The notes under the pieces are model-generated. The model saw only the letters and a list, made by a program, of their open reading frames with translations. It made no database searches and was not told the origin of the DNA. Below are positions 10,824-41,001 of a DNA stretch of 41,001 nt, piece after piece; the first letter of the stretch is position 1, and every line of letters begins with the position of its first letter. Origin of the DNA: Trichodelitschia bisporula (lineage: Eukaryota); assembly GCA_010356995.1 (NCBI GenBank), contig ML996703.1, forward strand, positions 744,001-785,001. Reading direction: 5' to 3'. The position numbers and the translations under genes were made by a program.

Positions 10824-11949
10824 TCATCTCTTCGGCGGCACCAGCGAGCTGATGTTAACGCCCATTCCGGCGAGCGCAGGCCCAACGTCCAGCATCGTCC
10901 GCATAGGATTCGACTGCAGCGCCGCCTCGTAGTACGTGAGGTGCTTCCCTTGGTACACGCTCCAGCGACCAACGATGTCCACGGGGATGATGCCATCGTG
11001 GTACTTCTTCATGATGGCCGTGATGACGCCAGCCTGATCCGTGTTGGAGCGCATCTCGGCGATGTTCTCGCCCGGCTTCAGTGTCAGGTCCTTCAGCGTC
11101 GAGTTGCCGATCGACGTGCCGTCGACGAAAAGATCTAGCGTCACGTCGCCCATTTGCAGGGTGATTGGAGACGCGTTCGGGATCGACACCTTGCCAATCA
11201 TGTTCGTGCCGTCGGGCTCGCGCGACAGCGAGATGTTGAAGTCGAGCACCTTGAAGCCGGCGAGCTTGTTGAGGCCTGGGCATGTTAGCGACGTAAGAGC
11301 ACGAGAACGGCATCCATACCCTTCGAAGTGACGATCTTGTTGAAGTTGACGTTGGTCTTGGGGAAGCCGCCCTGCTTGAGGCCCATACGGCCCCTGATTC
11401 CGACGCGGTACGTCTCGCTGTTCATGACGACCTTGTTGTACTCCTCGAACTGGCGCAGGTTCTTGATTTCCAGGGTCTGGTTGACGAAGATGATGCTGCG
11501 GTGCGTCGCCTTGACGCGGGGGATGGTGATGTAGCCGAAAGGCTGGATGGGCTCCGGACCCTCGAGGAAGAGCGCCGCCTCGAAGGAGTCGAGCCACGGC
11601 TCGAAGGAACTCTTGCTCTTGCTGATAGTCGTCATGGCCAGCTGAACGGAGTCGGGTGTCGGGTCCATCACGACCTGCGACTCCAGCTCCAGTTCGGCAT
11701 CATTGATACCATTTTGAGCTATGTTCGGTATGCCCACAAACATGCTGTCCGCGGTCAATGATGCTCCCTCGCAGTTGCGCGTGATACTTACAGCAGCAGT
11801 AACACCAACAGGAATCCGATGATGAAGATGATCAGATGTAACCACCAAAAACGCCTGAAATGTGCCTTGAGCTTGCCCTGCTTGCGCGGCGGCGCCGAGT
11901 ATCCCGGCGAGGAGACATGCTCCAAGGTGTCGTTCTTGTAGTCAGGCAT
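10824..11949 (-). CDS. Single-pass type II membrane protein, DUF3712-like; 2 introns
   Basis: Exon 1 MPDYKND..HFRRFWWLHLIIFIIGFLLVLLLL, then PNIAQ, PFGYITIP, KIVTSKG|LNKLAGF, IPNASPITLQMGDVT, LTLKPGEN, YYEAAL. Confidence 0.8.
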
Positions 11950-15564: not shown

Positions 15565-15639
15565 CTAGATTCTCTCGTGACTTCGCGTTGGCGAACACCT
15601 CCGTTATCCCCTTTCAGCACGTAACCAGCTCGCGTGGCA

Positions 15640-17850
15640 ATGGAGCACCAGAAGACCTACCTGTATGCGCCGGACTCTTCCCGGCCGACCAAGCGTGGAC
15701 GCACCGAGGCCCCAGAGTGGGAACTACAGTCATCATGGAAGATGCGCGAGGAGACATGCCACCGACTTTGGTCCGAGCAGCAGAAACGCATTCAGAAAGT
15801 ACTTGATGACGCGAACTCCGATACCCTGAGCGATATTCTGGATTTTCTCGAAAAAGTAGAGCATCAACGGCAACGGTCTAAGATTCCGTGCGGATTCATA
15901 CTCGCCGGGTCTAGTGTTACGACGCAGACGTCCTTTTTCAACCAACTTTCGGAGAAGGTCCTGGCCTCGGGAAAGAACAGCTTTGCGTCGATTTCATCTG
16001 GAGAAGCTCCAAATTTGAAAGGCTTTCTCAAACTGCTTATCAGAAGGGCCATCGCGAAGAAGGATGCCTTTGACGGAGACGACGAAACCATCACTACGAA
16101 GGGCCGACGGCTTCTGGATTACGATCTCGGGGTGCTGCACGAATGGGTGAAGGAGAAAGAGATACAGGAGGTTGTTGTCACGTTCCAAGATGGAGAAGCC
16201 TTTGATGCGTCGCTGCTAGCCGATGTACTTGAGCTCACGCAGTACGTTTCGCCACTCCGCAATCCAATGCCGCTGACCTTCCCAGCTTGTGGTCGAACCG
16301 GATACCATTTGTTGTCTTAATAGGACTAGCAACATCAGTTGAAAATCTCCACCGAAGACTGCCTCAATCCATCGTCCGAGTGCTGCAGGGTCGCCAGTTT
16401 GACATCGTCCAAGCAGAGGTTCTGCTCGAGCGGTTATACTGCTGCTCCATGATCGACAGCGAACCCAGCCTTTGTATTGGACCTCGTCTCGGCACCGCGA
16501 TACTGGAACGTATCCGGCTCCATACGCAAAACCCGCAGGACTTTGTTGATGAGCTCCAAGTAAGTCAAGGTTCATTCGCGAGGGCACAGCGCTGACTGCC
16601 CAGTATGCCTACATGACTCATTTCTTCTCCAATGGACTAAGTGTCTTTCTCAGCGAGGACCTGGAATGGGGAGATTGGGCCCGGGAACATGTGGAAGCTC
16701 TGCGGAACCTGCCATCATTCCGAAGGTACAGTTTTCCGCATGCAGGGGTTCATCGCTAACGACAGTAGGTTTGCCGAGGAGAAGGTCAAATACCCTCCAT
16801 CGCATTTCTCGGTCAGACAGCTTCTGGACAGAGATGATCTTCTGTTCAACTGGGCCCGTGATACCGTTGCCAAAAGCCATAAGACGATGCACCTAATGGC
16901 GGAGGCCGCGAAAGTCGTACACGCGTGTCGAAGTTTAGTTGGCAAGTCAAACCTACTACTCTCCGACCTGTTTATGGAGGCACTTTCCGGACAACTCCAC
17001 GATGCGTCTCATGTCCGGGAACTGTTCCTCACCATAAAGAGAGCTCCATCGGATCAACTGTCTCGGCTTATCAGCACCCTTCTTCCCCTGGTACCTGACG
17101 AAGCCTCTACGCTGGAGCAAATACAAGAGAAGCTGGACGCCCTCGAAGCTGAAAATGATTCAGGTCATCCGCTGAAGAGCGAACATGACGTTCAGAATCA
17201 GACCCTGCGGGCCACCGTGGTCGCGCGGAGAGTAGAGCTCAGTAAACTGAAAGCGAGCCTGTCGAAGGCCGATGCAGAATATACGGATATTTTGCTACAA
17301 TTCCACGAATGGCTGGAGGGCTATTTGAGCGACTTGCTGATTGATCCTGAAGACGTCTTACTGTCGGAGATCACCATCTATGATCGGAAGGCACCACACA
17401 AGCTGGCCTTTGAGCCAAAGCCGCGGCATGCCATAGAGCGTGCTTTGTTCGCGCCTCATGACTATCTCAATTGCGACTGCTGTCCGGTCGGAACGGGTCC
17501 GGACTCGGAGGTAAGCTTCAAGGCAACACTTGGTTTGGCAAAGACTGATCCACTCTAGGGCACGCTGTCCTTCACACAACCTCCCACCTCCATACTCTAC
17601 CAGCTGCACCTTGAGTCCGGCCCCTTGATCAACGTCAGCGATCTCTTCTCCGCCTTCCGGGCAATCATGGACGAGGAGGCGGAGGAGAAGCAGATATTGT
17701 GAGTGCAACACCCTATTGGGAGAGCAAGGCTGACTGGAATGTAGATATCTCTTCCAGCGGGCGCTGGCCGAGCTGAAATACCTCGGCATGGTCAAGAGCA
17801 CCAGGAAGAAGACAGACCACATCGCGAAAGTGTCGTGGCGGGGTCTCTAA
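15640..17850 (+). CDS. ORC3: Origin recognition complex subunit 3; 5 introns
   Basis: IPCGFILAG, EAPNLK..LK, RLLDYDL, FQDGEAFD, RIPFVVLIGLATS, YAYMTHFFSN, PKPRHAIERAL..PHDYL, LINVSDL, winged-helix end RALAELKYLGMVK..DHIAK. Confidence 0.93.
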
Positions 17851-19847: not shown

Positions 19848-22800
19848 CTACTCATCCTCCATTTCCTCATCCTCATCCTCGTCCATGCCCTCCGCAGCAT
19901 CAATCGTGAACGTCGGCGCCTGGTCCACCCCAAAGTAGCTATCGCTCATCAAGTACAGCGTCAGCTCCTGCTGTCCAGGATTCTGCACAATGTAGTCCAG
20001 CTTCGTCTTCAGCGACCTGCCCACCGTAATCCGCTTGATCCCGTACAGGCTCTTGGTCGCCTCATTCCCAACTACCAGCCACCAATTCTCCGCCTTCTCA
20101 AGTGGGAAGAACGGCGCATGCACCTTGGTATTAGGCTCCTCATCCTCATCAAGCTGCCGCTCAATCGTAACCTCTAAGAACGCCGGCTCGCCCGTGCTAA
20201 TATCCTCCTTGCCAAGCACCTCAAACGACAAATCCAGATTCGGGTACGTCGTGTTGGTGAAGTTCGCCGCGTCGGCTAGCTGGCGATTGCTAAGCCCCAG
20301 CGCCGCAACGAGCTGCTCGTACTGCGCGTTCTCCGACGGATCCATGGCCTCCATGAAGGAGTAAATGTCCTCGATACCGGCGGCTGTGGCGGCACGGATG
20401 GCCTTGTCGTCGAAGTGCGGGATCTGCATTAGCGGGCTGTCGCGGTCCCACATGGCCTGCACGACCATCTGCGACATCTCCATGGCGTTCATGGCGTTGA
20501 GGTGGCCCTCGGAAGAGAGGATGTCGACACATGCGCTGAGCAGGTTGAGAGCCTTCTTGAGGATGACTTCCTGATCCTTGGCGAGATCGATGGGGAGCTG
20601 CATGCGCGAGAAGTGCGCTTGCAGAAGCACAAAAGCCTTAAAGTGGGGCGAGTTGTAATCAGGCTGCGACATCTTGACGGGCACACGGTCGTAAATGCGC
20701 CTTAGGACCGTGTCTTCGTGGCGGCGGATCTGGATGTTTTCGAACTCTGTCGCTGAGGTGACGATTTCCAGGATACCCTTAAGCTTTGTCTTTGCGTTAA
20801 GGGACAGGAGGAAGGTTTGCATCGTGATGAAGGAGATCTTGTAGTATGCAGCGATCCGAGCAGCGTTCATGGGGGTGATGCTGTCGTCTTCTTCGTCCAG
20901 CTCAATCATCTTGGCCTCGACAAGATCCTTCAATGTCGTCTCCACCAATTCGGAGAGGAATGCGCTGAGACCTTCGTGCGAGGTGTCGGTAAGACCGTAG
21001 AAACTCGGGTTAGCCAGTAGGCGACGGTAGAAATAAGTGTACGTCGACCAATCCACAGCATCCTGCGTCGAAGAGATCATGCCCGTGCTGATTTCGCCGA
21101 CGAAAGCGTCATGAAGGTAGCCTTGAAGCTGGCTCTCAATAGGTAGAGCCTCGTTGAGGAACTTCTTATAGTAGTCTCGCTTGACAGCAGGCAGCATGAG
21201 AACGCCCTTGCTGATCTTGTCCTTGCCTATCTGCCCTGACTTGCCAAACATCTGAAGGATCTCAGCGATGGTGTAGTCGATGTACCTGTGTTCCCGGCCA
21301 TCGAAAAACTGGGTCCCCATCACCACAACTAGATGGGCGTTGACATCGAGCTCCCAGCAGCAGTCCCGAGATACGAGTAACACCTGAATGGCGCCGATCT
21401 GGAACAGATGCAGCACAGCGCGCTTGTCAAACGAGTCCAAAGCTTCATGATAGTATCCAATGCCATGCTGCAAGGATTCCATCAGAGCCCGCTCGTTGAT
21501 TTTCTCCAGAACAGGTTGCAGCTGTTCCAGGGGCGCATTCAGGAAGCGGTCCTCGTTATCATCAGCGGTGGCCGCGGCGAGCAGATCCAAAGCAGTTGCC
21601 CGGCTCTGCTTCCGGTTCGGGACAAATACAAGCGCCGGCTTGTCCACGGAGAGTGTGAGAATGGACTGATATACCGGCTTGGCCATGGCGAGCATCAGCG
21701 AAGGGAAATGGGGGATTGTGAATGACTGAATGTGGAGCTCCAGGGGAACAGCGCGAACGGCAGGGCTAAAGTTGAAAATGGTGTGCTTTGTCGCGCCGAT
21801 CCATTCGCCAATGTCACGGGCGTTGGAAAGCGAGACACTAAGTCCGACGATTCGGAGACCAGACTCCAGTTGCTGGGACATGGCGTGCATGCGCGAGACA
21901 ATCGCCTCGTAGATGTAGCCACCAAATCCACCAAGCAGATGCAAATCGTCGGCGATGAAGAGCGTCACGCTTTGGACATTCTTCCGGCGCTGCCACTGGC
22001 CAGAAACGACATCCCACTGCTGCGGTGTGGCCAGAATGAGATCTCCACGCTCGAGCAAGCGAAGATCTGCCGTGCTCTCGCCCGTGAGCTTGACTAGCTC
22101 CTTGCCCCCAGCCAGGCCGGAGAGACGCTTTTGCCAGTCCTTGAACCGCAAGTCCACGAGCTCCTGGAATGGCGCAATGTAGACTGCCCGACCACTCTCT
22201 GGGTTCCTCCAGTGGCGAAGCAGAGCGAATTCTGCGCAAACCGTCTTGCCAATGCCGGTCGGCGCACCTAGGAAGACATTGTCGTCGGTCGAGTAAAGCG
22301 ACTGGAAAACCTGGGTTTGAACCTTGTTGAATTGTCCCCAGTTGGGGTAGAGATTCTGGTACTCGGTCACCTTCAACGCGCTAACAGGTAGGGCTTGGAG
22401 ATCCAGCAGAGGAGTATGGGGCGGGAACTTCTCAGGCAGGATCAGTTTCTGAAAGGAGACGGCAACCTTCGATTCTGAGTGCATCCAGCGATCGGAGATG
22501 ACGGTGATGAAGTAGTGTGGAGGCATAGGCTCCGAGATCGGGACGGTGAAGTCCACCAAATGCTCCTTCATCTCACCGACAGCATAGTCGCGACGCAGAA
22601 AGAACAGGTCGTGGTAGAGGATTTCTTCACCGTCGCAGTCCTCGACGAGAATCCAAAAGCTTTCCGCCGCACCATGGATGGTATCATCCCATTCAAAATT
22701 GGGAGTGATGGTAAGGTCGACGCGAAGCACTGACCGCGTCACGGGCTGGACTTGTGCCTGGAGATCCAGTCTTGGGAATTTCTCGACGAGAGAGCACACG

Positions 22801-25800
22801 TTCTTCCCCGCCTTGGGCATACCAAGTAGTTCGCTCATGCGCGGGGGGTCGAGGTCGAAGTAATGAGACCAAGGCACGTCTATGCGCTCGGCCTTCTGGA
22901 TAATATCGCGAGAGCAATGCGGGAACTGCCGAAGTGGCGACATAGTGGGCCACATGCGCTTCTCCGCCATTTTGCACAAATCCAGGGCAACCTTCGCAAC
23001 CGACGACCAGCCCTTCCTGAGACAGATCTCGAAGATGGCACGGAGAATACGTCCCGCGGACTGGGTCACGTAAACCATATCGGCCATCAGCGCCAGTCCT
23101 TCAAGCTTGAGGCGAGAAATGTAAGCCTGGAGGAGGACATTGATCTTCGCATGCGGCTCCTCAATTGTCTCCTTGACGGGGATAGGAACCCGTCCGATCA
23201 TCTTCGCGATCTCGAGTTTCTCGTCCTGGCGCACTGGGATATATTTGAACTCGTCGCTGAGGGCAAATATCCGGAACAGCTCGATCTGCGAGATGGAGGG
23301 TTGGATGTGTTGGTTGTAGACCGCCATAGAGTTGTGCGTAATATAGTAGTGAGAGGCGATCCGACCGAGTTCAGTTGTCTGGAGCTTCCCGCTGCGGAGG
23401 TCATACTTCGCCAGCCCGCACTTCTCCAGAACCGTGGCAGCGGAATGGATTAAATCAACACGCTTCTGTTCAAGCGCTACATCATCTTGATACTCGGGAC
23501 CGACGCTGTAGAGCCCTGGAGACCGCAGCATCCGGACGAAGAGATACGTGTAGCCGAGCCACTCTACACCCTCGTCGCGATTGCGCACATTCCCAAGCAC
23601 AATCTCGGCATTGAGATTGTCAGCGAGTTTGCTAACGAATTGACTCTCAATGGGGAGCTGTTGATTGAGGAGTGAGAGGTAGTACTGGATTTCGGCTTGC
23701 GTGGTGATGATGATACCCTCGCCGTATGTGTCGTATTGCGGACGACCGGCACGCCCTAGCATCTGAAGAACATCCTGAGGACTGAGTTCTACCCAACTGC
23801 CCTTCTCAGGCGAGTAGATCTGCGTCCCCTTGATGATGACAGTGTGGGCGGGCAGATTGACACCCCATGCAAGGGTAGCTGTGCAGACCAAAACCTGGAG
23901 CTGACCGCCGGCAAACAGTTCTTCCACTGACGTGCGATCAGCGCGAGTCATTCCTGCGTGATGGATGCCGAAGCCGTACGGCATGAGATCTTTCAGATCC
24001 GCATTGTTGATAGCGTCAGCCTCTTCCCGCAGAATTTCACGACTTGCCGCATCACTCCGCAAAATCTGACCGATCGTATCCTCCTCGAGCGCCTTGTCCC
24101 GGATGTATTTGGCGGTTTTGGCAGTCTCTTTGCGAGAGTGGACAAAGATCAACATCTGGTTTCGGCTCTGGCCAACTTGCTCCAGTACCTTGCGGTAGCA
24201 CACATCGTTCATCGTCTTGAGCTGCTTGATGGCCTTTTTATCGGTAACACCAATGAACTCCTGCTTCAGTGGGCAAGGCCGGAAGGAGCCATCGAAGTGG
24301 AAGAGACCCTTGATGGGATCGACTCGGAGGAAGCTCGCAACATCGCGGTAATTTGGCAACGTGGCACTGAGACCGAGGATTCGAACGGGATCACCGGTCT
24401 GCTCGGTCCGACGAATGGTCCTGCTCACGATGCTCTCCAGAACTGGGCCACGATCATCGTGAAGGAGATGGATTTCGTCGATACAGATCAGCCGAACCAG
24501 ATTAGTATAGCTCGTGTCAGTAGCTTTCCGCGTAATCACATCCCACTTCTCGGGCGTCGTGACAATGATCTGAGTATCAGCAATTTGCTGCTTCGTAAGC
24601 TGGCGATCGCCCGTAAGTTCCGACACGGTAATGCCGTAGGGTTTTAACCGCGCACCAAAGTTGCCAACTTGCTCTTGGACGAGGGCCTTCAGCGGGGCGA
24701 TGTAAATGATCTTGAACTCGTCAAGGTTGATCTCGCCCGTCTCTGGGTTCCGGTGCTTTCCGATTTCGCGAAGCATCGCCAGCATGGCCACATTGGTCTT
24801 TCCGGAGCCAGTGGGTGCACACACCAGCATGTTGCCATCATCTTCAAATGCTGACGGGTAACAACGAGTCTGGATGCGGTTGAGCTTCGCCGAAGAGCCA
24901 AAACCTATCCGCGCCCACTCGGGCAAAGTGGACGTCGGCAGATCTGGCGTTTCGTTGGCATCACGTTTTGGCTTCGGGGCGGGGACGTGGATTTCTTCGT
25001 AGCCCTTGAATGTGCGCTTCGTCGATCCCTGGGGAAGCTTGACGTTGGAGTTCGTCATGAGATGATTTCCCTGTTCGAAGACCAGGTTCTCCAAGTTGAT
25101 CAGACGTTTGGGCTGGAGACCACCTTTAAGTCCTTGTTCCTTGCCGTCAGCTTCTTCAGCCTTAGGCTCGGGGCGGTCGATGTCCATCAGGTCCAGTTTC
25201 ATCTTTTTCGCTCCGGAGGAGTCGTCCTCGGCGACTTCACGCGTTCGCAGTTCGGTCAGCATATTGCGATGCCCAGCAGCAATCATTTCGCGCTCGATCA
25301 CTTGCCGGGCGTCCTTATCGTCCGCTGCACGCCGCCATCGCGTGACCCAGACGATCTTGTCGCGGTTGAGGACTAGCTTTGAGACGAGCTCCGGATGCTC
25401 GTAGTCGAACAGATCCATGAGTTCGTTCTCAATTTCACGAAGGGGCTTTTCCTCGCCTTCCTCATCTGTGCCAGCAAGAATCTCAAGAGCGTCCTTAGTC
25501 TTCTCCTGCTGGGTGTGAGGGTCCTCGTAGATGCGGCCGATCTGACGCTGCAGCCAGAAGGCGTCGATATCGTACGCTTGAATGATCGATTCGCCTTTTT
25601 GTTTTTTCGCCACATCGTCCACTCCCGTCCGAATGATCAACTCGCCGTCTGCATCGAGTTCCGGGCCGGTTTCGTTCCCGGCGGTGATATCTCCGTCTTC
25701 GACGGGCTGCTCCTCTTCGTCTTCCAATTCTTCATCGGAGGTGTCGCCTTCATCTCGGATCTCAAAGGTCTGACCGGCAGCCTCGTCATCTTCATCCTCA

Positions 25801-26549
25801 TCGAAGACAACTGCCACACCCTGGCGGTCGTCGACCTCGCCGTCGGCCCCCTCTCCAGCATCAGCCATATGTTCATCCTCATCTTGAGCATCGTAGTCGG
25901 TAATCTTCTTGCCCAGATTGACCAGCTCGTTGAACTCCTTTGAGCTCATGGTGACACCCAAAATGTCATCCACCTCCTTCTTTTTGTCAAAGTCCTTCAA
26001 ATCTTCGTCCTTCAAGTATTCCAATACGGCATCCGCAGCGCTGCGCGTGACTGTGTTTGGCACATCACCCAACTTGCGCGCAACCATCGTCGTGATCAAC
26101 TCGAACGTGGCCCGGGTAGCCGGCGTCTTGGGGCGGTACTTCAGCCCCTCAACCAGCAGATCCTGCTGCGACAGAATGCCCGCGCCACGTAGCTGTGCTG
26201 GCTCGCCGCGACCCTTCTTCTTCTGTTGTTGTAGGACCGACGCACCCTCGTCGAACTTGCCGCGCTCCACATCCAACGTCTGACGCGGTTTCTTCTGCGT
26301 CGGTAGATTGTCGCGCCCGGTACGCCCACCCATGTCTTTGATGCTGATGCGGCCAGCGAGCGATTCGGGATCACCAGTGTTCTCATCGGTACGCCGCGTC
26401 ACGAAGCGCCGGTCGGCTTGCAACACCAAGTTGGACATGGCTGTGTATTTGAACTGCGACAGATTGTTGGACTTCTCGCCCTGGCCACCCTGCCCTCCTT
26501 GAGCGCCCTGCCCTCTTTGGGCGCCTTGCCCTCCTTTGCGATCGGCCAT
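19848..26549 (-). CDS. BRR2: U5 snRNP 200 kDa Ski2-like RNA helicase Brr2 (2233 aa, no introns)
   Basis: APTGSGKT, DEIH, SAT, QMLGRAGRPQYD; second degenerate helicase cassette (ADDLH); two Sec63 domains; N-terminal SNLVLQADRR. Confidence 0.99.
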   Translation of the reverse strand: MADRKGGQGAQRGQGAQGGQGGQGEKSNNLSQFKYTAMSNLVLQADRRFVTRRTDENTGDPESLAGRISIKDMGGRTGRDNLPTQKKPRQTLDVERGKFDEGASVLQQQKKKGRGEPAQLRGAGILSQQDLLVEGLKYRPKTPATRATFELITTMVARKLGDVPNTVTRSAADAVLEYLKDEDLKDFDKKKEVDDILGVTMSSKEFNELVNLGKKITDYDAQDEDEHMADAGEGADGEVDDRQGVAVVFDEDEDDEAAGQTFEIRDEGDTSDEELEDEEEQPVEDGDITAGNETGPELDADGELIIRTGVDDVAKKQKGESIIQAYDIDAFWLQRQIGRIYEDPHTQQEKTKDALEILAGTDEEGEEKPLREIENELMDLFDYEHPELVSKLVLNRDKIVWVTRWRRAADDKDARQVIEREMIAAGHRNMLTELRTREVAEDDSSGAKKMKLDLMDIDRPEPKAEEADGKEQGLKGGLQPKRLINLENLVFEQGNHLMTNSNVKLPQGSTKRTFKGYEEIHVPAPKPKRDANETPDLPTSTLPEWARIGFGSSAKLNRIQTRCYPSAFEDDGNMLVCAPTGSGKTNVAMLAMLREIGKHRNPETGEINLDEFKIIYIAPLKALVQEQVGNFGARLKPYGITVSELTGDRQLTKQQIADTQIIVTTPEKWDVITRKATDTSYTNLVRLICIDEIHLLHDDRGPVLESIVSRTIRRTEQTGDPVRILGLSATLPNYRDVASFLRVDPIKGLFHFDGSFRPCPLKQEFIGVTDKKAIKQLKTMNDVCYRKVLEQVGQSRNQMLIFVHSRKETAKTAKYIRDKALEEDTIGQILRSDAASREILREEADAINNADLKDLMPYGFGIHHAGMTRADRTSVEELFAGGQLQVLVCTATLAWGVNLPAHTVIIKGTQIYSPEKGSWVELSPQDVLQMLGRAGRPQYDTYGEGIIITTQAEIQYYLSLLNQQLPIESQFVSKLADNLNAEIVLGNVRNRDEGVEWLGYTYLFVRMLRSPGLYSVGPEYQDDVALEQKRVDLIHSAATVLEKCGLAKYDLRSGKLQTTELGRIASHYYITHNSMAVYNQHIQPSISQIELFRIFALSDEFKYIPVRQDEKLEIAKMIGRVPIPVKETIEEPHAKINVLLQAYISRLKLEGLALMADMVYVTQSAGRILRAIFEICLRKGWSSVAKVALDLCKMAEKRMWPTMSPLRQFPHCSRDIIQKAERIDVPWSHYFDLDPPRMSELLGMPKAGKNVCSLVEKFPRLDLQAQVQPVTRSVLRVDLTITPNFEWDDTIHGAAESFWILVEDCDGEEILYHDLFFLRRDYAVGEMKEHLVDFTVPISEPMPPHYFITVISDRWMHSESKVAVSFQKLILPEKFPPHTPLLDLQALPVSALKVTEYQNLYPNWGQFNKVQTQVFQSLYSTDDNVFLGAPTGIGKTVCAEFALLRHWRNPESGRAVYIAPFQELVDLRFKDWQKRLSGLAGGKELVKLTGESTADLRLLERGDLILATPQQWDVVSGQWQRRKNVQSVTLFIADDLHLLGGFGGYIYEAIVSRMHAMSQQLESGLRIVGLSVSLSNARDIGEWIGATKHTIFNFSPAVRAVPLELHIQSFTIPHFPSLMLAMAKPVYQSILTLSVDKPALVFVPNRKQSRATALDLLAAATADDNEDRFLNAPLEQLQPVLEKINERALMESLQHGIGYYHEALDSFDKRAVLHLFQIGAIQVLLVSRDCCWELDVNAHLVVVMGTQFFDGREHRYIDYTIAEILQMFGKSGQIGKDKISKGVLMLPAVKRDYYKKFLNEALPIESQLQGYLHDAFVGEISTGMISSTQDAVDWSTYTYFYRRLLANPSFYGLTDTSHEGLSAFLSELVETTLKDLVEAKMIELDEEDDSITPMNAARIAAYYKISFITMQTFLLSLNAKTKLKGILEIVTSATEFENIQIRRHEDTVLRRIYDRVPVKMSQPDYNSPHFKAFVLLQAHFSRMQLPIDLAKDQEVILKKALNLLSACVDILSSEGHLNAMNAMEMSQMVVQAMWDRDSPLMQIPHFDDKAIRAATAAGIEDIYSFMEAMDPSENAQYEQLVAALGLSNRQLADAANFTNTTYPNLDLSFEVLGKEDISTGEPAFLEVTIERQLDEDEEPNTKVHAPFFPLEKAENWWLVVGNEATKSLYGIKRITVGRSLKTKLDYIVQNPGQQELTLYLMSDSYFGVDQAPTFTIDAAEGMDEDEDEEMEDE

Positions 26550-28049: not shown

Positions 28050-28877
28050 ATGAAGGCCTCACTCACACTCGTTTTTCTGTCCGCGGTCTCGCCGATCTGG
28101 GCGCAAAAGTGCCAGACACTGCCCAAGGAGGTTAAGCTGGGTCCCGCCATCGAGATGAAGGCGTCCGACATCCCGCAAGGCTGCGCCGACTTCGAAGTCC
28201 TCGTGGGTACGTTACCCACGCCGCTACCCGCATGCGTCCGATCAGAGCCCCCTGCTAACACCCTGCCACAGCCCGCGGGACCAGCGAGCCAAACTACGCT
28301 AACGGCGGCAAATTCGGCGTCGTCGTCGGCGACCCTGTCGTCAGCAATCTGACCAAGGTGCTCCCGGGGGCGCGCGGCTACCCCGTGCAGTATCCGGCGA
28401 GCAGCAGTGCAATGACTGGCGTGACGCAAGGCGCGGCCGACGTAGTCAACCGCCTCAAGAAGCTGGACAAGGAGTGCCCGAACATGAAGTTCGCCCTTGT
28501 CGGCTACTCGCAGGGCGCGGCCGTCATGCACGCTGCCGGCAACAAGATTCCCGCTGAGATTCAGCCGAAGGTGGTCGCTCTCGTCATGTTCGGTGATCCG
28601 GCCCTGCGCAGTGCAAGCAGTGGCGCCCCGTTTCCTCCGTTGCTGCAGGGGCGGTTGTTGGAGAACTGCGCTGAGGGCGATTCGGTACGTTTTGCCTCGC
28701 TTTCATCGTTTCAGGGGAACTTGGGACTAACAGATCCAGGTCTGCGACAAGGGCTCATGCTTCTACCCTCATTTGACCTACATGAGGATAGAATGGGTGG
28801 ACAGGACGGTCAACTTCCTTGTCAATGCCTTCAAGGGGACACCTCTACCGGCGAAGCCCAGTGGCGTGGGATTGTAA
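28050..28877 (+). CDS. Secreted cutinase (CE5); 2 introns
   Basis: Signal peptide, ARGTSE, GYSQG nucleophile, VMFGDP, NCAEGDS|VCD, PHLTY. Catalytic triad complete. Confidence 0.93.
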
Positions 28878-29669
28878 ATTCGATATATGGGAGTAGACAT
28901 GAGCAGCATCGCGCATCCCGGGCTATCGGAGTGTCAGCAGAAAATTGTAGTACCAAAAAGGGACGCAGAGACTGCTCCCCCTGAATTGTTGCATCCCGTT
29001 GTGCCACCTACCTGCTCAGCCGAACACTTATTGCACTGATATGTTAACCTATATGGGGCTCGAGCTTCAAGCGAAAACTTGACGGCGCAAGACGCATGGA
29101 CGAACAATTGCAACCAGCTACACGCTTAGCATCGATGTCGTGTCCAGGACTTGGGAGGAAAGTGATACAAGTCCATCCGGCACTACCATAACAGTAGCAT
29201 GCGGCGCAAATTTCCGGTCACTAGCTAGCGAGCATTCGGGTCCGCACGAGGACGCGACAAAGACGCGTCTTCCCAGTCACATTCCCCAGGATCGGGCGTC
29301 CAGGTCATGAACCAGCCGTGGGCGCGCGAGGAGTCGATCCTGTCAATGCAGGCCGTTGAAAAGGGCGATGCTGCGGGGTTGGTGTTTCGAAAACGGGGTG
29401 ACGCAAGGCGCGGGTCGAACGTTACGCAGAGCACCCTAGCCAATTTCGGCATCGAGATGGCAGGAACCGTTGCCTTTGGGATAGTCGGAAGGTCCGGAGG
29501 ACACAGAGATGCTACCCATCGCAGATACCCTGTGCTGCGAGAGGGAAATCTGGCGGGTGCAACAAGGCGGCCAAGTCGTATGGGACACGGCTACTTGAAG
29601 AGGGGCATCCGCAGGTTAATGGTGTACTCCAGCAACACTTCCAGAGATCTTTCGCCCTAACTGCGCAGC

Positions 29670-35131: not shown

Positions 35132-38100
35132 ATGGCTCGCCTCATGTACTTGAGCGAGCTGTGTCGGCTCTCCGGCTTAGCCCAGGTGGGTAAAATCCCC
35201 GGCATCTCATGCGTCAGCGCTAGTGATGAAGATGGCGAGTTCACATTCATACTGGGCGATGGACAGGACTGGCACTTCTTCACAGTTGTCGTGTCAGGTA
35301 TGTGGCAACACGCTCAATCCGAGCCAATTGATGTGTCTTACTCACCGACCACAGATGTCATGGTGTACCCACATTCACACGTCTTTACGGTCTTCTCCCA
35401 GGGGCATCTGCCAGACGATCTCTCTCAAGCCGTCGATGGGCTTGGATTCCCGTACAACATGGGCGCTACTTTGACCCAGTTGCTGGGCGACATGTCCAGG
35501 CTGTATCGGCATATGGCTGGCCAAGATACATCTGCCACACATCACGACCCGGGGGATGACCTTGCCGCTGAAGACATGGATGCTGACACCATGGAAGAGA
35601 CCATTTGCTCCGATTTGCGGTTGGCGAAGCGGGCTGGTTTTAGGGTGGGCGTTCATGGCAAATTCGCGCTCGATGAGCCTTCATACGTTTTGCTCAGTAT
35701 ACGTATCTCGAAGCTTGGAATATCAAGCGCTGCCATGGCTGCGTGGGAGATGGACCGCAAGGACTACCTTCTGCTGGCTATCCAGTACAGCGAGGGATAT
35801 GTTCCAATGAGCGCGCTGAACGATATGTCACGCCATCAAGTACCTAAGGGGGAAACGATGCTATTTCGAGTAGGAGTCAGCCGCTCGTACAAGCCTAGCC
35901 TGAAGCACATCATCAACGCGTTCTCGAGCAGTCGGTATGGCGGTACCTCCGGCGCTCCGACCGAGAAGCATGGTTTTCGGTGGTTTTTCATCGCGAACAC
36001 TCTGAACAACTTGCTCAACGAGCGCCTCGTACCTATCGTCAACCTACGTGCTACTGGTTTCACCTGGGTGCAGGCGGGAGAGAAATGCGCAAACCAGTTC
36101 GAGAACTCGGGCAATTTCTCGAATGAGGTGGATTCTACCGCCCTGGCTTCCACGCCCACCGGCAGCGTTTTGCCTGGTGTGCCTCCAGTCGTTCAAGCCG
36201 ACCACATCCTCGACGACCATCCGGCGTGGGGGTATTCCTTCCCCTTGGTCGCCATGCAGTTTGTTCTTCGCCGCTTCGTGCGCTGCACCGACTTCTGCGT
36301 GGTTTGCCACCGCAAGATCCCTGGTGACCTGGAGGCGATCAAGCCGGACGTCTGTGACAAACCCCTGTGCCTCTATCAGTACATGGCCCTCGGCCTGGGC
36401 CCGAGCATTGAGAACGACATTCGCTCTCAGCCGTATGTTGTAGATCTCCTGATCAGCTTCGCCTATGCTCGCGCCTGTTCCGGGAATCCCATGGATCATG
36501 CCTGTCCTTCCGGCATGGGGCTCGAGGTACCGAATCCAGAATTCTACACCATGAATATCGAGAACGTACCCCTTACTACGTATCCTCGTCCGTCTGGCAT
36601 CAACGGTGCATTTCGGACGTGGTTTGCCTGGTACACTCCTCATCTTAAGACGCTGAACTTCGTAAACTGCAACACTCCCTGTCCCTTCAGGAATGGAGAA
36701 TGGATATCTGTGCGCACTGGCAATAAGCCGGACGCAAGCCTCTGCTTCAGTGGTGTAGTATCAAACGTTGTCGGAGCCAACATATGCATTCAGGACGTCT
36801 CGAAGTGGCCTAACGCAATTGTGGTCACGCCTATCCCAATTGGTCCGTTTGGGAATAATGTTGCCACTGGAACCATACAGATCTGTTTCCATGTCGCAAA
36901 GTTCGACACGCTCTTTGACCACTTGGTACCTTATATGAAGGCCTGGTCGATGCAAAAGATGCTGTGCGACCTGCCGAGCGTAACGGAGATGCAACAATTC
37001 CTTCAAAACAATCACTGGAGCAATCTTTCAGAGTGGACAAACAGAATTTCATCAGCGGCTCTTGGGATGCTGCGGTGGATCATTGCATCTAACCGTGCGT
37101 TCATTGTCCATGTCGACACTTTCCGGAATGACCCCAGCAGCGTCTGGGGTATGCCCGGCTGGGTGCAGTTCCGCGTCGCCATGGGTGCTCCTGTAAGTCG
37201 GTAACGAGTATTTTGCGATTACTACTGACAAAGACAGGACAAGGAAGCTCGGTTCAAGAAGGCTGTGGATCAATTTGGCCGCATAGCTAGCCCCCGCTAT
37301 CCGACTATCTTCGCCTTTCACGGCAGCCCGATAACAAACTGGCATAGGATCATTAGGGAGGGCTTGAACTACGATTCTATTGCCCACGGTCGTTCATATG
37401 GCCATGGGGTCTACTGCGCTCTACAAGCTGCGGTCAGCTTGCCGTACGCTCGAGACGATCCTGTAAGACACCCCCGCTGCCCACAGAACTCGGCATATTT
37501 GCTTGCGTTTGCTTACTATAGGCTCCAGAAAAACCCGATGTGGCCGAACAGTATGCTTAAAATGACCGCTGCCATTTCACTCAATGAAATTGTGAACGCG
37601 CCGAATCAGTTCGTCTCTCGGGCACCTCACTTTGTTGTCGACAAGGCCGATTGGATTCAGGCTCGGTACCTCTTCGTCCGCTGTGCAACTCTTTTTCCGC
37701 CGGAGCGCTCCACCTCACCGCCGATAGTTCAAGAGCTGGACCCGGTGATGCGGCCGGTTGGCGTAAACGGCGAGATTCTGATCATCCCAAAGTTGAATTT
37801 GATGCCTCAGCGTCAAGAAGGCGATTCGCAAAACCCGATCGAGCTCAGTTCCGACGACAGTGACGAAACCGACTTGGACGACCGGGAGCTTTTGGCTTCT
37901 CCGAAACAGAAAAAGAAGCCAGCCATGCCGCTCACCGACTTCATCCCTGGCACGCTGGACTACAGCGAACTGCCACAGATGGCGGCACCGTCCAACTCGA
38001 CGTCCTCGGCCACGAATCGTCTCCGCAAGGAGTTCCAGCGGATAATCGAGGCGCAGGAGAAGACGCCGTTGCATGAACTGGGCTGGTACACTGATCCCAA

Positions 38101-38608
38101 CCAGATGAGCAACATGTACCAGTGGATCTTCGAGCTGCACTCGTTCGATCCTGCCTCGCTGCTGGCGATGGACATGAAGGGCATGGACATCAAGTCCATC
38201 GTGCTCGAGATGCGCTTCCCCGCCAACTTCCCACTGCAACCACCTTTTGTCCGCGTGCTCAAGCCACGCTTCCTGGCGCTACAGGAGGGTGGTGGCGGCC
38301 ACGTCACGGCCGGAGGCTCCGTTTGTCTCGAGGTACGTCCCCGCTGCTCCACCGCAATGCGAAACCCAACTCAGCTAACATCCACTTAGATGCTCACAAA
38401 CACCGGCTGGAGCCCAACCGTCGCGCTCGAGAACATCCTCCAGCAGATCCGCCTGGCCATGACGTCCGGCGAGCCGCCCGCGCGCCTCAACACCCGCCAC
38501 CAAACAGAGTACTCCGTCCACGAGGCGTATAATGCATATCTGCGTGCCTGTCGTATGCATGGCTGGACGGTCCCGGAGGGCTTCCAGAAGACGGCGTTCG
38601 GGATTTAG
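35132..38608 (+). CDS. PARP6/8-like ADP-ribosyltransferase fused to a UBE2Q-like ubiquitin-conjugating (E2) domain; ~4 introns
   Basis: CVVCH..VCDKPLC zinc motif; LRWIIASNR; MGAP|DKEARF; ART motifs FHGS..W..IIREGL and GRSYGHGVY..SLPY; E2 motifs PPFVRV and GGHVTAGGSVCLE|MLT..GWSP. Introns ~35298-35354, 37193-37237, ~37463-37521, 38333-38389. Confidence 0.9.
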
Positions 38609-39072
38609 GGGTCCTTCTCTGGTCTACTCTCGTTAGTACTCTGGTATGTACCTTGCAGGAACGGCGAGGGAAGTGGGCGTATGGTCCGCGTTTCCTTTTC
38701 TCGGCGTCCGTGGAGTTGATGGCTGGAGTGAGTGGACGGCCTCGGGTGTGTGGAACTTATGGGCTGCTCTCGGGCAATCTGCTCGTTGCAGGAGAGCAAG
38801 ATAGTGGGGTCTATGGTGGTAGATTGCAGCTGTACGAGGGAGTAGAATAGTCATCTCTTTAGAAACAGAAAAATCAAAGGCCATCTGCAATGTGAGGCGT
38901 GCACTTGATAATCTCTTGATGAAGACGTGATTAGCGGACCATCCACTTTCGAAATCGCCGCAGCTCAAAAATTCTTTCACGACGCATGGCGTGCACACTG
39001 AATGGCATTCTAATGCAGACGCAGGGAGCGGATCGTCCTTCGTCTTCAGCACAGTTTTATCAAAAGGCAAAA

Positions 39073-39190
39073 ACATACAGCAGTTGGGATTCGCTGCTGG
39101 TCACCCACGCAACTACTAGTCAACCGGTTCGAAGCTTAACTTCAGTGAGCAGACGGGGACTGGTGTACTCTTCGACCTATAGCCGTATGT
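39073..39190 (-). rRNA. 5S rRNA gene, copy 1 (118 nt)
   Basis: Reverse complement ACAUACGGC..CCCGUCUGCUC..GUUAAGC..UAGUAGUUGCGUGGGUGACCAGCAGCGAAUCC..GCUGUAUGU. Helix I closes the ends, a T-run terminator follows, and TATAA lies at about -27 to -23. Confidence 0.93.
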
Positions 39191-39525
39191 GGTGATCCGT
39201 GCTGCCGGTTGATTATAGCTGGCAAAAAAGACGGAAGCATTGTCAAAAGAAGTGTTAGCTCTCCGAGCGAGAGCGTTCTTGGGTTGGAATAGGGGACGTG
39301 CGTTAAGCTGCGGGCATCTCCCCTCGATCAGCCGGCTGAGCAGAAAGCTTCACGGGCCACCTGAAAAATTATCATGGCAACCTCGCCTGGCTGATTTTGC
39401 GGACGGGACAGCTATGACTTTTTCAACTGGTCCTTCGGCCAGAGTGTCGGCTTACATTAAGCATCGGAGCTCCTCCCGCTGAACGGGCCGATCAGCAAGC
39501 TTCCGGGGTGCAAAGAAGACAAAAA

Positions 39526-39643
39526 ACATACAGCAGTTAGGATTCGCTGCTAGTCACCCACGCAACTACTAGTCAACCGGTTCAAAGCTTAACTTCAGTG
39601 AGCAGACGGGGACTGGTGTACTCTTTGAACTACGGCCGCATTT
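39526..39643 (-). rRNA. 5S rRNA gene, copy 2 (variant or incipient pseudogene)
   Basis: Same length as copy 1, ungapped, 9 substitutions. T-run terminator present, one mismatch in helix I, no upstream TATAA. Confidence 0.8.
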
Positions 39644-39731
39644 TTGCGGCAAAATGCACACCGCCTTAACTAAGCTGCTGACTAATGTAGATACCGTACT
39701 ACAGAGATGGAAAACGCGGCTAGGCGGCAGG

Positions 39732-39747
39732 GTGCGACTAGTCGCAC
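39732..39747. repeat. Perfect 16-bp palindrome GTGCGACTAGTCGCAC
   Basis: Read directly from the sequence. Confidence 0.85.
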
Positions 39748-40175
39748 ACCCCCTTAGCCTTCGTGTACACCCCTTCCGCACCCCACCAATAAGACCGACG
39801 AGATCGTTCCCCGCGCGGCCGTGCGAGCCCTGAAGCAACAGGGTCGATGCACCGCCGGGCACCCGATAATAAATTGCGAAAGTGGTACCAATCGATAGAG
39901 CTCGACGATGCGATCGTTTATCTGTCTTTCTTATTTTGATATCTCTTTATGCAGCCTCTGCATCGTGCTACAAAGGGCTTGGCCAATGTCACTGTCTGTC
40001 ACGGGCAACGTCTGGGACATCAAATGTACTGATGCGTGTATGACTGAAAATACTGCTATGAAGAGGAAACGTGAAAGGTCTAGAACTGAAATGCAGGTGC
40101 GGGGTGGCAGTGGACCCTGGGCTTGGCACCGAGCGGCTGCATCACGTGGTATGGCTCAGCAACGCACTGGCAGGG

Positions 40176-40838
40176 CCTGACATGCTGAGACCATGACACT
40201 GTCAGATGTGGCACTGCAAGAGTTCAATGGTCTGAAGCAACTTAGATTACTCGGTTCAGGAGAGGAAGTCCTCTGGGGGGCTTCCGGACTGTCTACTCCA
40301 GGTGGGGGGTGCGGTGGCCCAAGCTCCCTTGCCAAGCGCGCGCATGGGAGCCGCGTTCACATGCGCGGTGCACCACGTGCCAGGTGTCATACCATGACAG
40401 TGGACGGTAGCCTCAAGCCAAACGTTATTTGCTAAGCTTAAGGAGGAGTTCGCTTCGCCGGCGCGCACGACCATATGGGTTCTGCGTGCACCAAGCCTTC
40501 TGCCCGGGCCGGACCGCCGGGGCTGCCGCGGCCCGTGGCCCCGGGCAGGTGCTAGAACCTTGACAGTAAGCACTTAGACAAGAGGCGCCGGCGGGGATCC
40601 GGGCCCGGTCAGGGCTGGGTCCGCGCCGGCGCCAAAAACTCACGATACCGCGACACGAACATTAAGCGCGCGCCCACATAAACTTTCACTCCTTGTAGCA
40701 ATAACTTCATGTTTCCCAACAACTTGGATTGAGCCCGCGTGACCAGACAAATGTACCCTGACAGCCTGGAGCTAAGTTGCTTGGCCGTGGGCCGTGACAA
40801 TGTCGCACTTCAGATTATCTCAACCATGACAGCTCAGG
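40176..40838 (+). ncRNA. Candidate large structured RNA or cis-element of unknown class
   Basis: More than 15 nested complementary segments, e.g. 40235-40245/40772-40782 (11 bp perfect), 40296-40302/40765-40771, 40460-40466/40668-40674, 40500-40508/40540-40548, 40584-40593/40624-40633. Non-canonical pairs are G-U on the plus strand. Confidence 0.45.
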
Positions 40839-41001
40839 AAAGCTCTCCGTCCCAATATCTTTTGGATATACAGCGTGCCTTGATCTTCCCGACCCCAACC
40901 CTTTTATATGAATTCTTCGAGAAAACTTCCACGAGCAAAATGTAAGTCGTCTCAGAATCATCGGCTTCCCTCCCAACAACGACACATTCCTGCAAGGAAA
41001 T
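40826..41001 (+). CDS. Possible first exon of a gene running off the window
   Basis: CAACCATG context, open frame MTAQESSPSQYLLDIQRALIF.. and a GTAAGT donor at 40942. No recognisable domain. Confidence 0.3.

Follow-up and report, generated by a model that had tools for sequence, protein, structure and literature searches.

The interval at positions 40176-40838 of the window, the whole 41,001-nt stretch of DNA analysed here, is probably intergenic DNA composed of transposon-like modules and located between a HET-domain gene and two 5S rRNA genes, all on the minus strand (Table 1). A sequence-only reading had described this interval as a large, branched, strand-specific fold-back structure and had offered three explanations: an undescribed large ncRNA, a structured 5' leader, or an RNA/ssDNA mobile-element relic. 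In the arrangement that we favour, fragments of a family of short transposon-like repeats would make up the interval. One intact dispersed copy (u1), with TGTCAYGG inverted ends and a 5-bp flanking repeat, would be followed by an older related module (u2), then by an imperfect inverted repeat of ~230 bp with two GC-rich palindromes, and by additional orphan occurrences of the terminal 8-mer as far as 40831. The palindromes would yield a strong local fold on either strand, and copies of the terminal motif in inverted or direct orientation, as well as the short complementary words present in any 660 nt, would allow a folding program or a reader to close the rest around the centre. Directly shown are the location of the folding signal, the end of the gene, the u1 borders, the motif cluster and the presence of other copies, including a rearranged one; we infer that transposition laid down the modules and that this DNA has no function as RNA.

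Table 1. Features in and around the interval 40176-40838, with positions in the window.
Feature	Position	Strand	Basis or description
5S rRNA gene 1, full length	39072-39190	-	Rfam RF00001, 89 bits, model positions 1-120 of 120
5S rRNA gene 2, full length	39525-39643	-	Rfam RF00001, 71.3 bits, model positions 1-120 of 120
u1, discrete dispersed ~200-bp repeat	39997-40198	+	ends TGTCACGG and reverse complement of TGTCATGG; CTGTC on both flanks
Interval of the sequence-only reading	40176-40838	.	composite: u1 3' end, u2, GC-rich palindromic centre, 3' flank and stop codon of minus-strand gene
u2, 200-bp module	40200-40399	+	begins TGTCAG, ends CCATGACA; weak full-length similarity to u1
ACCNTGACAS (reverse complement of the TGTCAYGG terminus), five copies	40190-40199, 40391-40400, 40557-40566, 40755-40764, 40823-40832	+	motif scan
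Central imperfect inverted repeat (~230 bp)	40436-40667	.	arms 40436-40523 and 40585-40667, 63% identity; 58/92 alignment columns identical
GC-rich imperfect palindrome 1	40500-40548	.	24-nt arms, 71% complementary; DNA fold z -1.74 (+), -2.58 (-)
GC-rich palindrome 2	40584-40633	.	22-nt arms, 82% complementary; 10-bp perfect base GGCGCCGGCG/CGCCGGCGCC
Inverted copy of first 14 nt of u1, terminus-like site	40786-40799	-	12/14 complementary to 39997-40010
Probable 3' UTR of HET-domain gene, extent inferred	40721-40833	-	717-nt possible-RNA contig
HET-domain gene 3' end: stop TGA 40834-40836 and last 55 codons	40834-41001	-	protein similarity; gene runs off window end

The interval folds better than chance on both strands

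The complementary strings from which the branched fold had been built are present: 10 of 10 helix pairs tested matched letter for letter at their positions, and both the CTCAA-CCAA/TTGG-TTGAG pair and the side hairpin were found in the printed sequence. Folding of both strands against shuffles, a check that the sequence-only reading had proposed, revealed a real excess of stability. The plus strand of the interval reached -280.9 kcal/mol (z -4.73; z -2.70 with 20 shuffles) and the minus strand -277.4 kcal/mol (z -3.18; z -3.36 with 20 shuffles), with 0/60 shuffles as good in each case. The background z of 13 other 663-nt stretches of the window had a mean of 0.16, an sd of 0.93 and a minimum of -1.48. 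After regression on GC, windows as low as this interval numbered 1 of 122 on the plus strand and 2 of 122 on the minus strand. On the basis of these shuffle and background z values and GC-regressed ranks, we concluded that the interval is more foldable than chance. The overlapping frame 40052-40714 was the most stable plus-strand window of the 122 (z -4.26 on the plus strand, -3.23 on the minus strand).

Since both strands beat their shuffles, the fold is not strand-specific as had been claimed; the minimum free energy structures contain 27 G-U pairs on the plus strand and 24 on the minus strand. The plus strand is somewhat more foldable than the minus strand by the z values above, which counts against the mosaic that we favour. 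The large branched fold thus survives in part: its strings exist and the interval outperforms shuffles, but its strand specificity was lost and the signal proved to be local instead of a nested architecture.

The signal lies in a palindromic centre

The excess stability is located in a 215-nt centre with two GC-rich palindromes, and it is local and two-stranded. This centre (40460-40674) gave z -3.50 on the plus strand and -3.20 on the minus strand, and in a 150-nt scan of the region significance was confined to 40500-40699. Nearly all of the folding signal is borne by the central inverted repeat. Palindrome 2 is the most non-random single element of the interval: its DNA fold gave z -6.13 (plus) and -4.23 (minus), with 0/200 shuffles as good on either strand, and it was also recovered by self-BLAST and by an inverted-pair search. 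An H/ACA snoRNA was considered for the twin hairpins and rejected by eye, as their long, GC-rich stems lack pockets and no ACA lies at a suitable distance.

Outside the centre, the left arm (40176-40459) gave z -0.60 and the right arm (40675-40838) z +0.69. Addition of the right arm gained -13.6 kcal/mol, compared with -8.2 +/- 3.2 kcal/mol for shuffled right arms, and 7/120 shuffles matched it; long-range closure of the arms is near chance. Interactions between sub-domains give roughly 11-13 kcal/mol above expectation, a result that counts against the mosaic. The 11-bp perfect pair 40235/40772, the showpiece of the proposed fold, turned out to be ordinary, with 5 such pairs of spans 300-700 in the 41-kb window. 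When the left arm was locally aligned with the reverse complement of the right arm, the 11-mer alone was found, and its score was reached by 29/300 shuffles. The arms therefore form no degenerate inverted repeat. A fold-back or long-TIR transposon spanning the whole interval was rejected on the same alignment, since the arms are not inverted copies. The side hairpin at 40252-40291 gave z -1.05 (plus) and -0.09 (minus) with DNA folding parameters only. In the frame 40052-40714, words at 40683-40700 pair with 40054-40077 instead of 40424-40445.

u1 resembles a short dispersed transposon

Judged from its letters and borders, u1 looks like a MITE or a solo LTR: it is small and non-coding, has dispersed copies and sharp borders, and gave no Pfam match. 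In the one copy read, its ends match at 7/8 positions when the second is reverse-complemented and are of the TG...CA type, and the 5-bp word CTGTC flanks it at 39992-39996 and 40199-40203. Four possible-RNA pieces stop matching u1 at 39998 or 40198/40199 while the contig continues; these contigs are 603, 1029, 4798 and 4737 nt long, and the last two come from separate runs of a single sample and may represent the same transcript. The borders occur in longer contigs in both orientations. In addition, the sequence before 39997 is dissimilar in 4 DNA contigs, and a variant at 40155 occurs in 9 contigs. Folded alone, u1 is at chance (z +0.31 plus, -0.25 minus), and a hairpin just inside its end, at 40151-40194, gave z -3.06. 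The two outermost left helices of the proposed fold (40176 and 40186) fall within u1.

The CTGTC match could instead be a unit junction of a degenerate tandem array. A plain tandem array was not shown when six ~200-nt units were aligned (42% mean column identity, 3 invariant columns), and Tandem Repeats Finder reported no array in 38500-41001 except a 12-nt microrepeat.

The neighbouring module u2 is related to u1. Their forward comparison scored 54, with 0/500 shuffles as good, and 2/500 after the ends were trimmed. Comparison of u2 with u3, and of u3 with the reverse complement of u4, gave 2/500 shuffles as good in each case; 20 comparisons were made in all, and similarity beyond u1 and u2 is borderline. 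The plus strand of u2 folds with z -1.99 (2/100 shuffles) and its minus strand with z +0.23, which counts against the mosaic.

Clustering of the terminal motif is far beyond chance. Exact TGTCAYGG, the terminal 8-mer of u1, has 5 of its 8 window matches in 39997-40831, where ~0.06 are expected, with one copy on the plus strand and four on the minus strand. Likewise, the ACCATGACAG motif with at most one mismatch has 5 of its 8 window matches in 40190-40832, all on the plus strand, against ~0.05 expected. These expectations are shuffle means scaled by length, and the cluster region makes up about 2% of the window. TGTCACGG also occurs on the minus strand at 40792-40799.

Such a cluster could in principle consist of protein-binding sites on DNA that regulate a neighbouring gene or form a boundary between Pol III transcription of 5S and Pol II transcription of the HET gene, with the fold as a by-product. 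The excess of same-strand copies (five in 643 nt), the palindromes CATG and TGACA/TGTCA within the motif, and the intergenic location suit this explanation. We nonetheless consider it very improbable, as the spacings of 201, 166, 198 and 68 nt are module lengths and do not form a compact enhancer, the motif forms the terminus of a repeat with dispersed copies elsewhere in the genome, and the right-hand gene presents its 3' end and not a promoter.

Taken as a mobile-element relic, the interval is well described in one respect: the inverted ends and 5-bp flanks of u1, the motif cluster and a rearranged copy (see below) all fit. For the RNA or ssDNA intermediate that was also invoked, we found nothing specific.

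The outer helices lie in two unrelated units

To the right of the interval lies a protein-coding gene. The 55-aa C-terminus encoded at 40837-41001 on the minus strand had three hits in the protein database, with identities of 93, 87 and 67% and each covering 98-100% of the 55 aa; 2 of the 3 carry Pfam PF06985, and all 3 end at the same residue. The nearest named proteins come from Trichodelitschia bisporula. The HET domain proper lies beyond the window end; Pfam was blank on the 55-aa C-terminus, and a search of three frames at the right window end at E<=10 returned 0 families. A 717-nt possible-RNA contig spans 40721-41001 with 0 differences and continues past the window. The right arm holds the stop codon and likely 3' UTR of this minus-strand HET-domain gene: the helix TCAGG at 40834 covers the stop codon, and the helices at 40724-40828 lie within the probable 3' UTR. 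Because the left side is a dispersed 200-bp repeat and the right side is the stop codon and likely 3' UTR of the HET gene, the outer helices join two unrelated units.

The same gene disposes of the structured 5' leader, as the sole gene to the right lies on the other strand, with its end and not its start at 40834. AAAATGTAAGT at 40938 had been considered as an intron-split start codon, with the fold as its 5' leader, and was dropped after the minus-strand HET C-terminus was found.

At gathering thresholds, Rfam reported two 5S genes only in the whole window, and at E<=10 in 39600-41001 it gave a chance-level mir-1202 row only (18.8 bits against a threshold of 80; E 1.4). Pfam searches of 9 ORFs in 39569-40800 gave no match at E<=1 except one noise row. 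The 18 large ORFs of the window and the 9 ORFs of the region include no tyrosine recombinase, helicase or other TE protein. Likewise, no transposase, autonomous partner or named TE family was found, which counts against the mosaic.

Further copies of the region

The contigs of a DNA run show additional copies of this region, including one that is rearranged at the module borders. In the DNA run X1, 411 contigs fall on a 2.2-kb stretch here. A 32-kb contig of this run (record 1) ends within 5S gene 1 at 39090, and the remainder is covered by contigs of 138, 295 and 532 nt. From within a 5S gene to a point 18 codons into the HET gene, 39626-40890 is covered by short DNA contigs that show 0-1 differences; the onset of the repeated DNA lies at or before the 5' end of 5S gene 2, and one contig (record 4) begins at 39626. 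The k-mer depth of the short contigs is ~1535-1620, versus 431 for the 32-kb contig, a rough hint since depth is not a copy number. Joints going back 399-445 nt in contigs show tandem 5S units elsewhere. This copy evidence comes from a run that may represent another strain, as it shows G only at 39837, where the window has A.

A diverged copy (record 6) differs at 9/141 and 23/210 letters. Its 40196-40336 part is inverted relative to 40399-40608, and the breaks coincide with the u2 borders (opposite-strand joint 40196/40399), with the first 137 nt of u2 oriented opposite to 40399-40608. When 39000-41001 was compared with the 41-kb window by self-BLAST, no other copy turned up except the 5S pair and the palindromes, and metagenome scans with a 26-mer of the core and with a 27-mer of the 5S gene each returned 0 loci.

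In another explanation, a ~1.3-kb block of 5S gene, repeat modules and HET-gene tail is the end of a larger element, mobile now or recently. This would be an undescribed element that spreads next to or with 5S genes and is either cargo-carrying or one-ended and rolling-circle-like. Alternative sites of termination or recombination would be located at the single 5' terminus (39997) and at the four inverted termini (40198, 40399, 40799 and 40831), and the hairpins beside them would act as strand-specific signals in DNA, with the strand bias of the fold belonging to DNA and not to RNA. We regard this as unlikely, although several observations speak for it: the DNA contigs that run with 0-1 differences from the 5S gene into the HET gene, the one-to-four strand distribution of TGTCAYGG, and the hairpins that lie inside the u1 end and, for u2 and u3, upstream of the ends. 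A further point in its favour is that Starships commonly carry HET-domain genes as cargo. In Pezizomycotina, 5S rDNA is repeatedly targeted by Starship elements, with the families Enterprise, Arwing and Voyager (PMC11162782). Their target sites are reported to be internal to the 5S gene and disrupting (PMC11162782), whereas both 5S genes here are full length; because both are intact, insertion of a Starship in 5S is retained here only as an improbable alternative. The absence from the window of a tyrosine recombinase, helicase or other TE protein also argues against a mobile block.

At the other extreme, the region could be unique GC-rich, low-complexity intergenic DNA with two accidental palindromes, its repeat signals being assembly or strain noise. 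Most helices are indeed near chance, module similarity outside u1 and u2 is borderline among the 20 comparisons, and contig depth does not give a copy number. We judge this improbable in view of the motif clustering far beyond expectation, the u1 borders, which recur in either orientation within 4 longer contigs (2 of them perhaps the same transcript), the rearranged diverged copy, and the hairpin at 40584-40633 that 0/200 shuffles matched on either strand. A mosaic of repeat modules remains our preferred account.

A large structured RNA is highly unlikely

The RNA evidence comes from two runs guessed to be RNA, whose contigs cannot show transcript end or strand. The pieces listed cover 40230-40401 (8 differences), 40380-40623, 40392-40622 and 40721-41001 and beyond, and among them no bridge from the left arm to the right arm was found. 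The contigs at 40380-40623 make some transcription of the centre possible, which counts against the mosaic. Among the pieces listed, 39688-39983 and parts of 38874-39021 have no cover, an observation that carries no evidential weight.

A real large structured ncRNA transcribed from the plus strand (about 40050-40840), antisense to the HET-gene tail, would be consistent with these short contigs on 40380-40623, with plus-strand z values below those of the minus strand in both 40176-40838 and 40052-40714, and with the latter being the most stable plus-strand window of 122. There is also no run of at least 4 T in 40176-40838, and TTTT follows at 40860. Nevertheless, the minus strand is significant too and the signal is restricted to palindromes able to fold on either strand; the arms stay close to chance, Rfam gave no match at E<=10, and the possible-RNA pieces listed do not bridge the arms. 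The putative RNA would have its left end within a dispersed repeat and its right end in the stop codon and likely 3' UTR of a coding gene, and its left part is inverted in the one diverged copy seen. Among the changes listed for that copy, G40265T, G40291A, C40299G and G40307A each break one claimed pair with no compensating change among those listed, and T40274C and G40277A fall in a loop. The undescribed large ncRNA proposed earlier thus finds little room: both strands fold, the arms are not significantly complementary, no Rfam family matches, and the outer helices lie in two unrelated units. We consider it highly unlikely.

Implications

These results remove a candidate orphan large ncRNA from the list and indicate that a GC-rich palindrome combined with repeat ends can mimic a big branched RNA fold. 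The remaining value is modest and lies in an unclassified ~200-bp repeat family with TGTCAYGG ends. A further hint is the joint occurrence of a 5S gene, the flank upstream of it and a HET-gene tail in several near-identical copies; if confirmed on the assembly, this would bear on the multiplication of 5S and HET genes in Dothideomycetes.

Comparison with known systems

Like telomerase RNA, RNase P/MRP RNA, SRP RNA and U3, the interval falls in the range of 0.6-0.8 kb and has a predicted multibranched fold with a negative z. Unlike the large fungal ncRNAs, it has no covariance-model match at E<=10, folds on both strands and carries its signal in palindromes. Moreover, the region has more than one copy, including a rearranged one, and overlaps a dispersed repeat and the stop codon of a protein gene.

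The region recalls the 5S-targeting Starships in that, in a member of Pezizomycotina, a multi-copy block adjoins a 5S gene and has a HET-domain gene as its neighbour. It differs in that its 5S genes are intact, whereas the Starship insertions are reported to be internal to 5S (PMC11162782). In addition, no captain tyrosine recombinase was found among the 18 large ORFs of the window, and the far end lies beyond 41001.

Compared with the MITEs and solo LTRs of filamentous fungi, the inverted ends of u1 are only 8 nt long (7/8), with no primer-binding site, polypurine tract, transposase or autonomous partner known, and the whole 663-nt interval is without significant terminal inverted repeats. 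The likeness lies in u1 itself, which is ~200 bp long, non-coding, dispersed in both orientations and found inside longer possible transcripts; the one copy has short inverted ends, TGTCACGG/TGTCATGG (TG...CA), and identical 5-bp flanks. The neighbouring modules and orphan ends resemble older copies.

The dispersed 5S genes of filamentous ascomycetes reportedly duplicate with their flanks and undergo birth-and-death evolution, a view attributed to Rooney and Ward in 2005. The arrangement here is similar: two full-length 5S genes lie 453 bp apart, and a 5S gene marks or contains the start of the repeated DNA.

Folding of the interval 40176-40838

A sequence-only reading had described 40176-40838 as a large, branched and strand-specific fold-back structure beside the 5S genes. 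The 10 helix pairs tested all lie exactly at the positions claimed, and CTCAA-CCAA/TTGG-TTGAG and the side hairpin are also present in the printed sequence. The minimum free energy (MFE) was -280.9 (plus) and -277.4 kcal/mol (minus), with z-scores of -4.73 and -3.18 against 60 dinucleotide-preserving shuffles per strand, none of which folded equally well (0/60 each); with a smaller set of 20 shuffles, z was -2.70 and -3.36. Elsewhere in the window, thirteen stretches of 663 nt had a mean z of 0.16 (sd 0.93, minimum -1.48), and GC-regressed MFE was as low as that of the interval in 1/122 windows on the plus strand and 2/122 on the minus strand. The most stable plus-strand window was the overlapping frame 40052-40714 (z of -4.26 plus and -3.23 minus; 100 shuffles each). 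Folding of the interval thus exceeds that of dinucleotide shuffles, and chance, on both strands, so that strand specificity was not upheld. G-U pairs, placed on the plus strand in that reading, number 27 (plus) and 24 (minus) in the MFE structures; the earlier impression arose because the helices had been picked on the plus strand. With shuffles surpassed on both strands, a true plus-strand noncoding RNA is the least probable of the readings weighed here; an Rfam search of 39600-41001 at E<=10 returned nothing besides one noise row.

Location of the folding signal

A 150-nt window scan of 39650-40999 was significant only at 40500-40699 (z of -4.4 and -3.4 plus; -2.7 and -2.2 minus). When folded as DNA, the palindrome at 40584-40633 gave z of -6.1 (plus) and -4.2 (minus), matched by 0/200 shuffles on either strand, and it is the driver of the folding signal. 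Under the same DNA folding, a second palindrome, 40500-40548, was weaker (-1.7 plus, -2.6 minus), and the side hairpin at 40252-40291 was not significant (-1.05 plus, -0.09 minus). At the centre, 40436-40523 and 40585-40667 form an imperfect inverted repeat (58/92 columns identical).

Joining the right arm to the rest gained -13.6 kcal/mol, compared with -8.2 +/- 3.2 for shuffled right arms, 7/120 of which gained as much. Alignment of the left arm with the reverse complement of the right yielded only the 11-mer AAGCAACTTAG, at a score not beyond chance (reached by 29/300 shuffles); the window holds five perfectly inverted 11-mer pairs spanning 300-700. In frame 40052-40714, the right-hand words re-pair with another left partner. 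Because the signal is local, the arms are near chance and alternative pairing exists, the nested architecture around the palindromic centre is not demonstrably above chance. It may nevertheless add a little genuine stability, on the order of 11-13 kcal/mol. Pure chance, with the arms near that level and the main palindrome unmatched by its shuffles, is an unlikely account of the whole.

Features of the window, with folding z-scores for the parts of the interval
Feature	Position	Strand	Basis or z
GH28 fragment	4464-5021
Two DUF3712 pieces	10824-11848
ORC3	15634-16320
BRR2/SNRNP200-type spliceosomal helicase	19848-26549	minus	uninterrupted 2233-codon ORF; Sec63, DEAD, PWI, plug domains
Cutinase	28358-28984
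PARP catalytic domain	37265-38389
5S rRNA gene 1, full length	39072-39190	minus
5S rRNA gene 2, full length	39525-39643	minus
Left arm	40176-40459		-0.60 (plus)
Centre	40460-40674		-3.50 (plus), -3.20 (minus)
Right arm	40675-40838		+0.69 (plus)
HET gene stop codon	40834-40836	minus	read in sequence
HET-domain protein C-terminus, last 55 residues, running off window	40837-41001	minus	similarity to 3 database proteins

Modules and a dispersed repeat

The motif TGTCAYGG occurs eight times in the window, five of them within 39997-40831 (one plus, four minus). Its complement ACCATGACAG, at <=1 mismatch, also occurs eight times; five copies lie within 40190-40832, all of them plus-strand and spaced 201, 166, 198 and 68 nt apart. 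About 0.05-0.06 motifs were expected there (shuffle means scaled by length). Clustered protein-binding sites are one reading of such crowding, to which we give a slim chance. The dispersed ~200-bp repeat u1 and the module u2 (40200-40399) align end to end with 0/500 shuffles as good (2/500 after trimming ends). Comparison of u2 with u3, and of u3 with the reverse complement of u4, gave 2/500 each; the pairs were selected out of 20 comparisons, and only u1-u2 survives correction for 20. A search of the region for a tandem array found none.

Contig comparisons show u1 (39998-40198) to be a discrete repeat with dispersed copies. It opens with TGTCACGG and closes with the reverse complement of TGTCATGG, with CTGTC on each side; its first 14 nt are complementary to 40786-40799 at 12/14, and the two outermost left helices of the proposed fold fall within it. 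Matches to u1 stop at 39998 or 40198/40199 inside four longer contigs from runs guessed to be RNA (603, 1029, 4798 and 4737 nt; both orientations), which continue beyond; the last two, from two runs of one sample with the same u1 span, may be one transcript. The letters before 39997 are unlike in four DNA contigs, and T stands at 40155 in nine contigs. In the DNA run X1, a 32-kb contig terminates within 5S gene 1, with short contigs of 138, 295 and 532 nt to its right (0-1 differences); their k-mer depth, about 1535-1620 versus 431 for the 32-kb contig, is a rough hint only. X1 contigs on the 2.2-kb stretch total 411.

One X1 contig, record 6, carries a diverged copy (9/141 and 23/210 letters differ) in which 40196-40336 runs opposite to 40399-40608, which places the breaks at the u2 borders. 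The proposed left-arm pairing could not form in this copy, to judge from its arrangement. Among the changes listed, G40265T, G40291A, C40299G and G40307A each break one proposed pair, and none compensates for these four.

X1 shows only G at 39837 (A in the window), and G makes up most of its depth at 40391; therefore either X1 differs from the assembly or, among the copies, the one in the window is in the minority. A DNA run labelled as another organism (X4, organism B) gave two short low-depth contigs identical to 39924-40133 and 40441-40702, with none of the remaining 2.2-kb stretch represented. These matches could reflect cross-sample carry-over, a relative under the wrong label, or a mobile sequence common to both.

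The HET gene and the 5S genes

Three proteins, 93, 87 and 67% identical to the 55-residue frame, matched it across 98-100% of its length. Each of the three terminates where the frame does and carries the source name Trichodelitschia bisporula; they are paralogues and the nearest database proteins, and two carry PF06985. The proposed helix strand TCAGG at 40834 is therefore the gene's stop codon, and the right arm its 3' flank. A 717-nt contig from a run guessed to be RNA spans 40721-41001 with 0 differences and continues past the window; it fits a HET mRNA whose 3' UTR measures some 110 nt, the contigs carrying no information on transcript end or strand. Many contigs cover 40872-41001 with differences, as expected for a gene family. 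We consider that the interval is most likely intergenic DNA of transposon-like modules and palindromes, between the 3' end of the HET gene and the two 5S genes, a reading we favour with some reserve.

In character, the window is typical fungal DNA, dense in genes. Nine ORFs of the region gave no Pfam match, and metagenome scans for related loci returned 0 loci. The 5S genes, 453 bp apart, are 93% identical (112/120). Contig joints that step back by 399 nt and by about 445 nt suggest that, at other places in the genome, 5S units with this spacer are arranged in short tandem arrays. Several diverged contigs cover the spacer 39191-39524, and a perfect 16-nt palindrome, GTGCGACTAGTCGCAC, lies at 39732-39747, some 90 nt upstream of 5S gene 2.

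A rival reading, in which a larger mobile block that travels with 5S ends in this interval, is improbable in our view. Starships often insert in 5S rDNA, internally and disruptively (PMC11162782), whereas both 5S genes here are intact.
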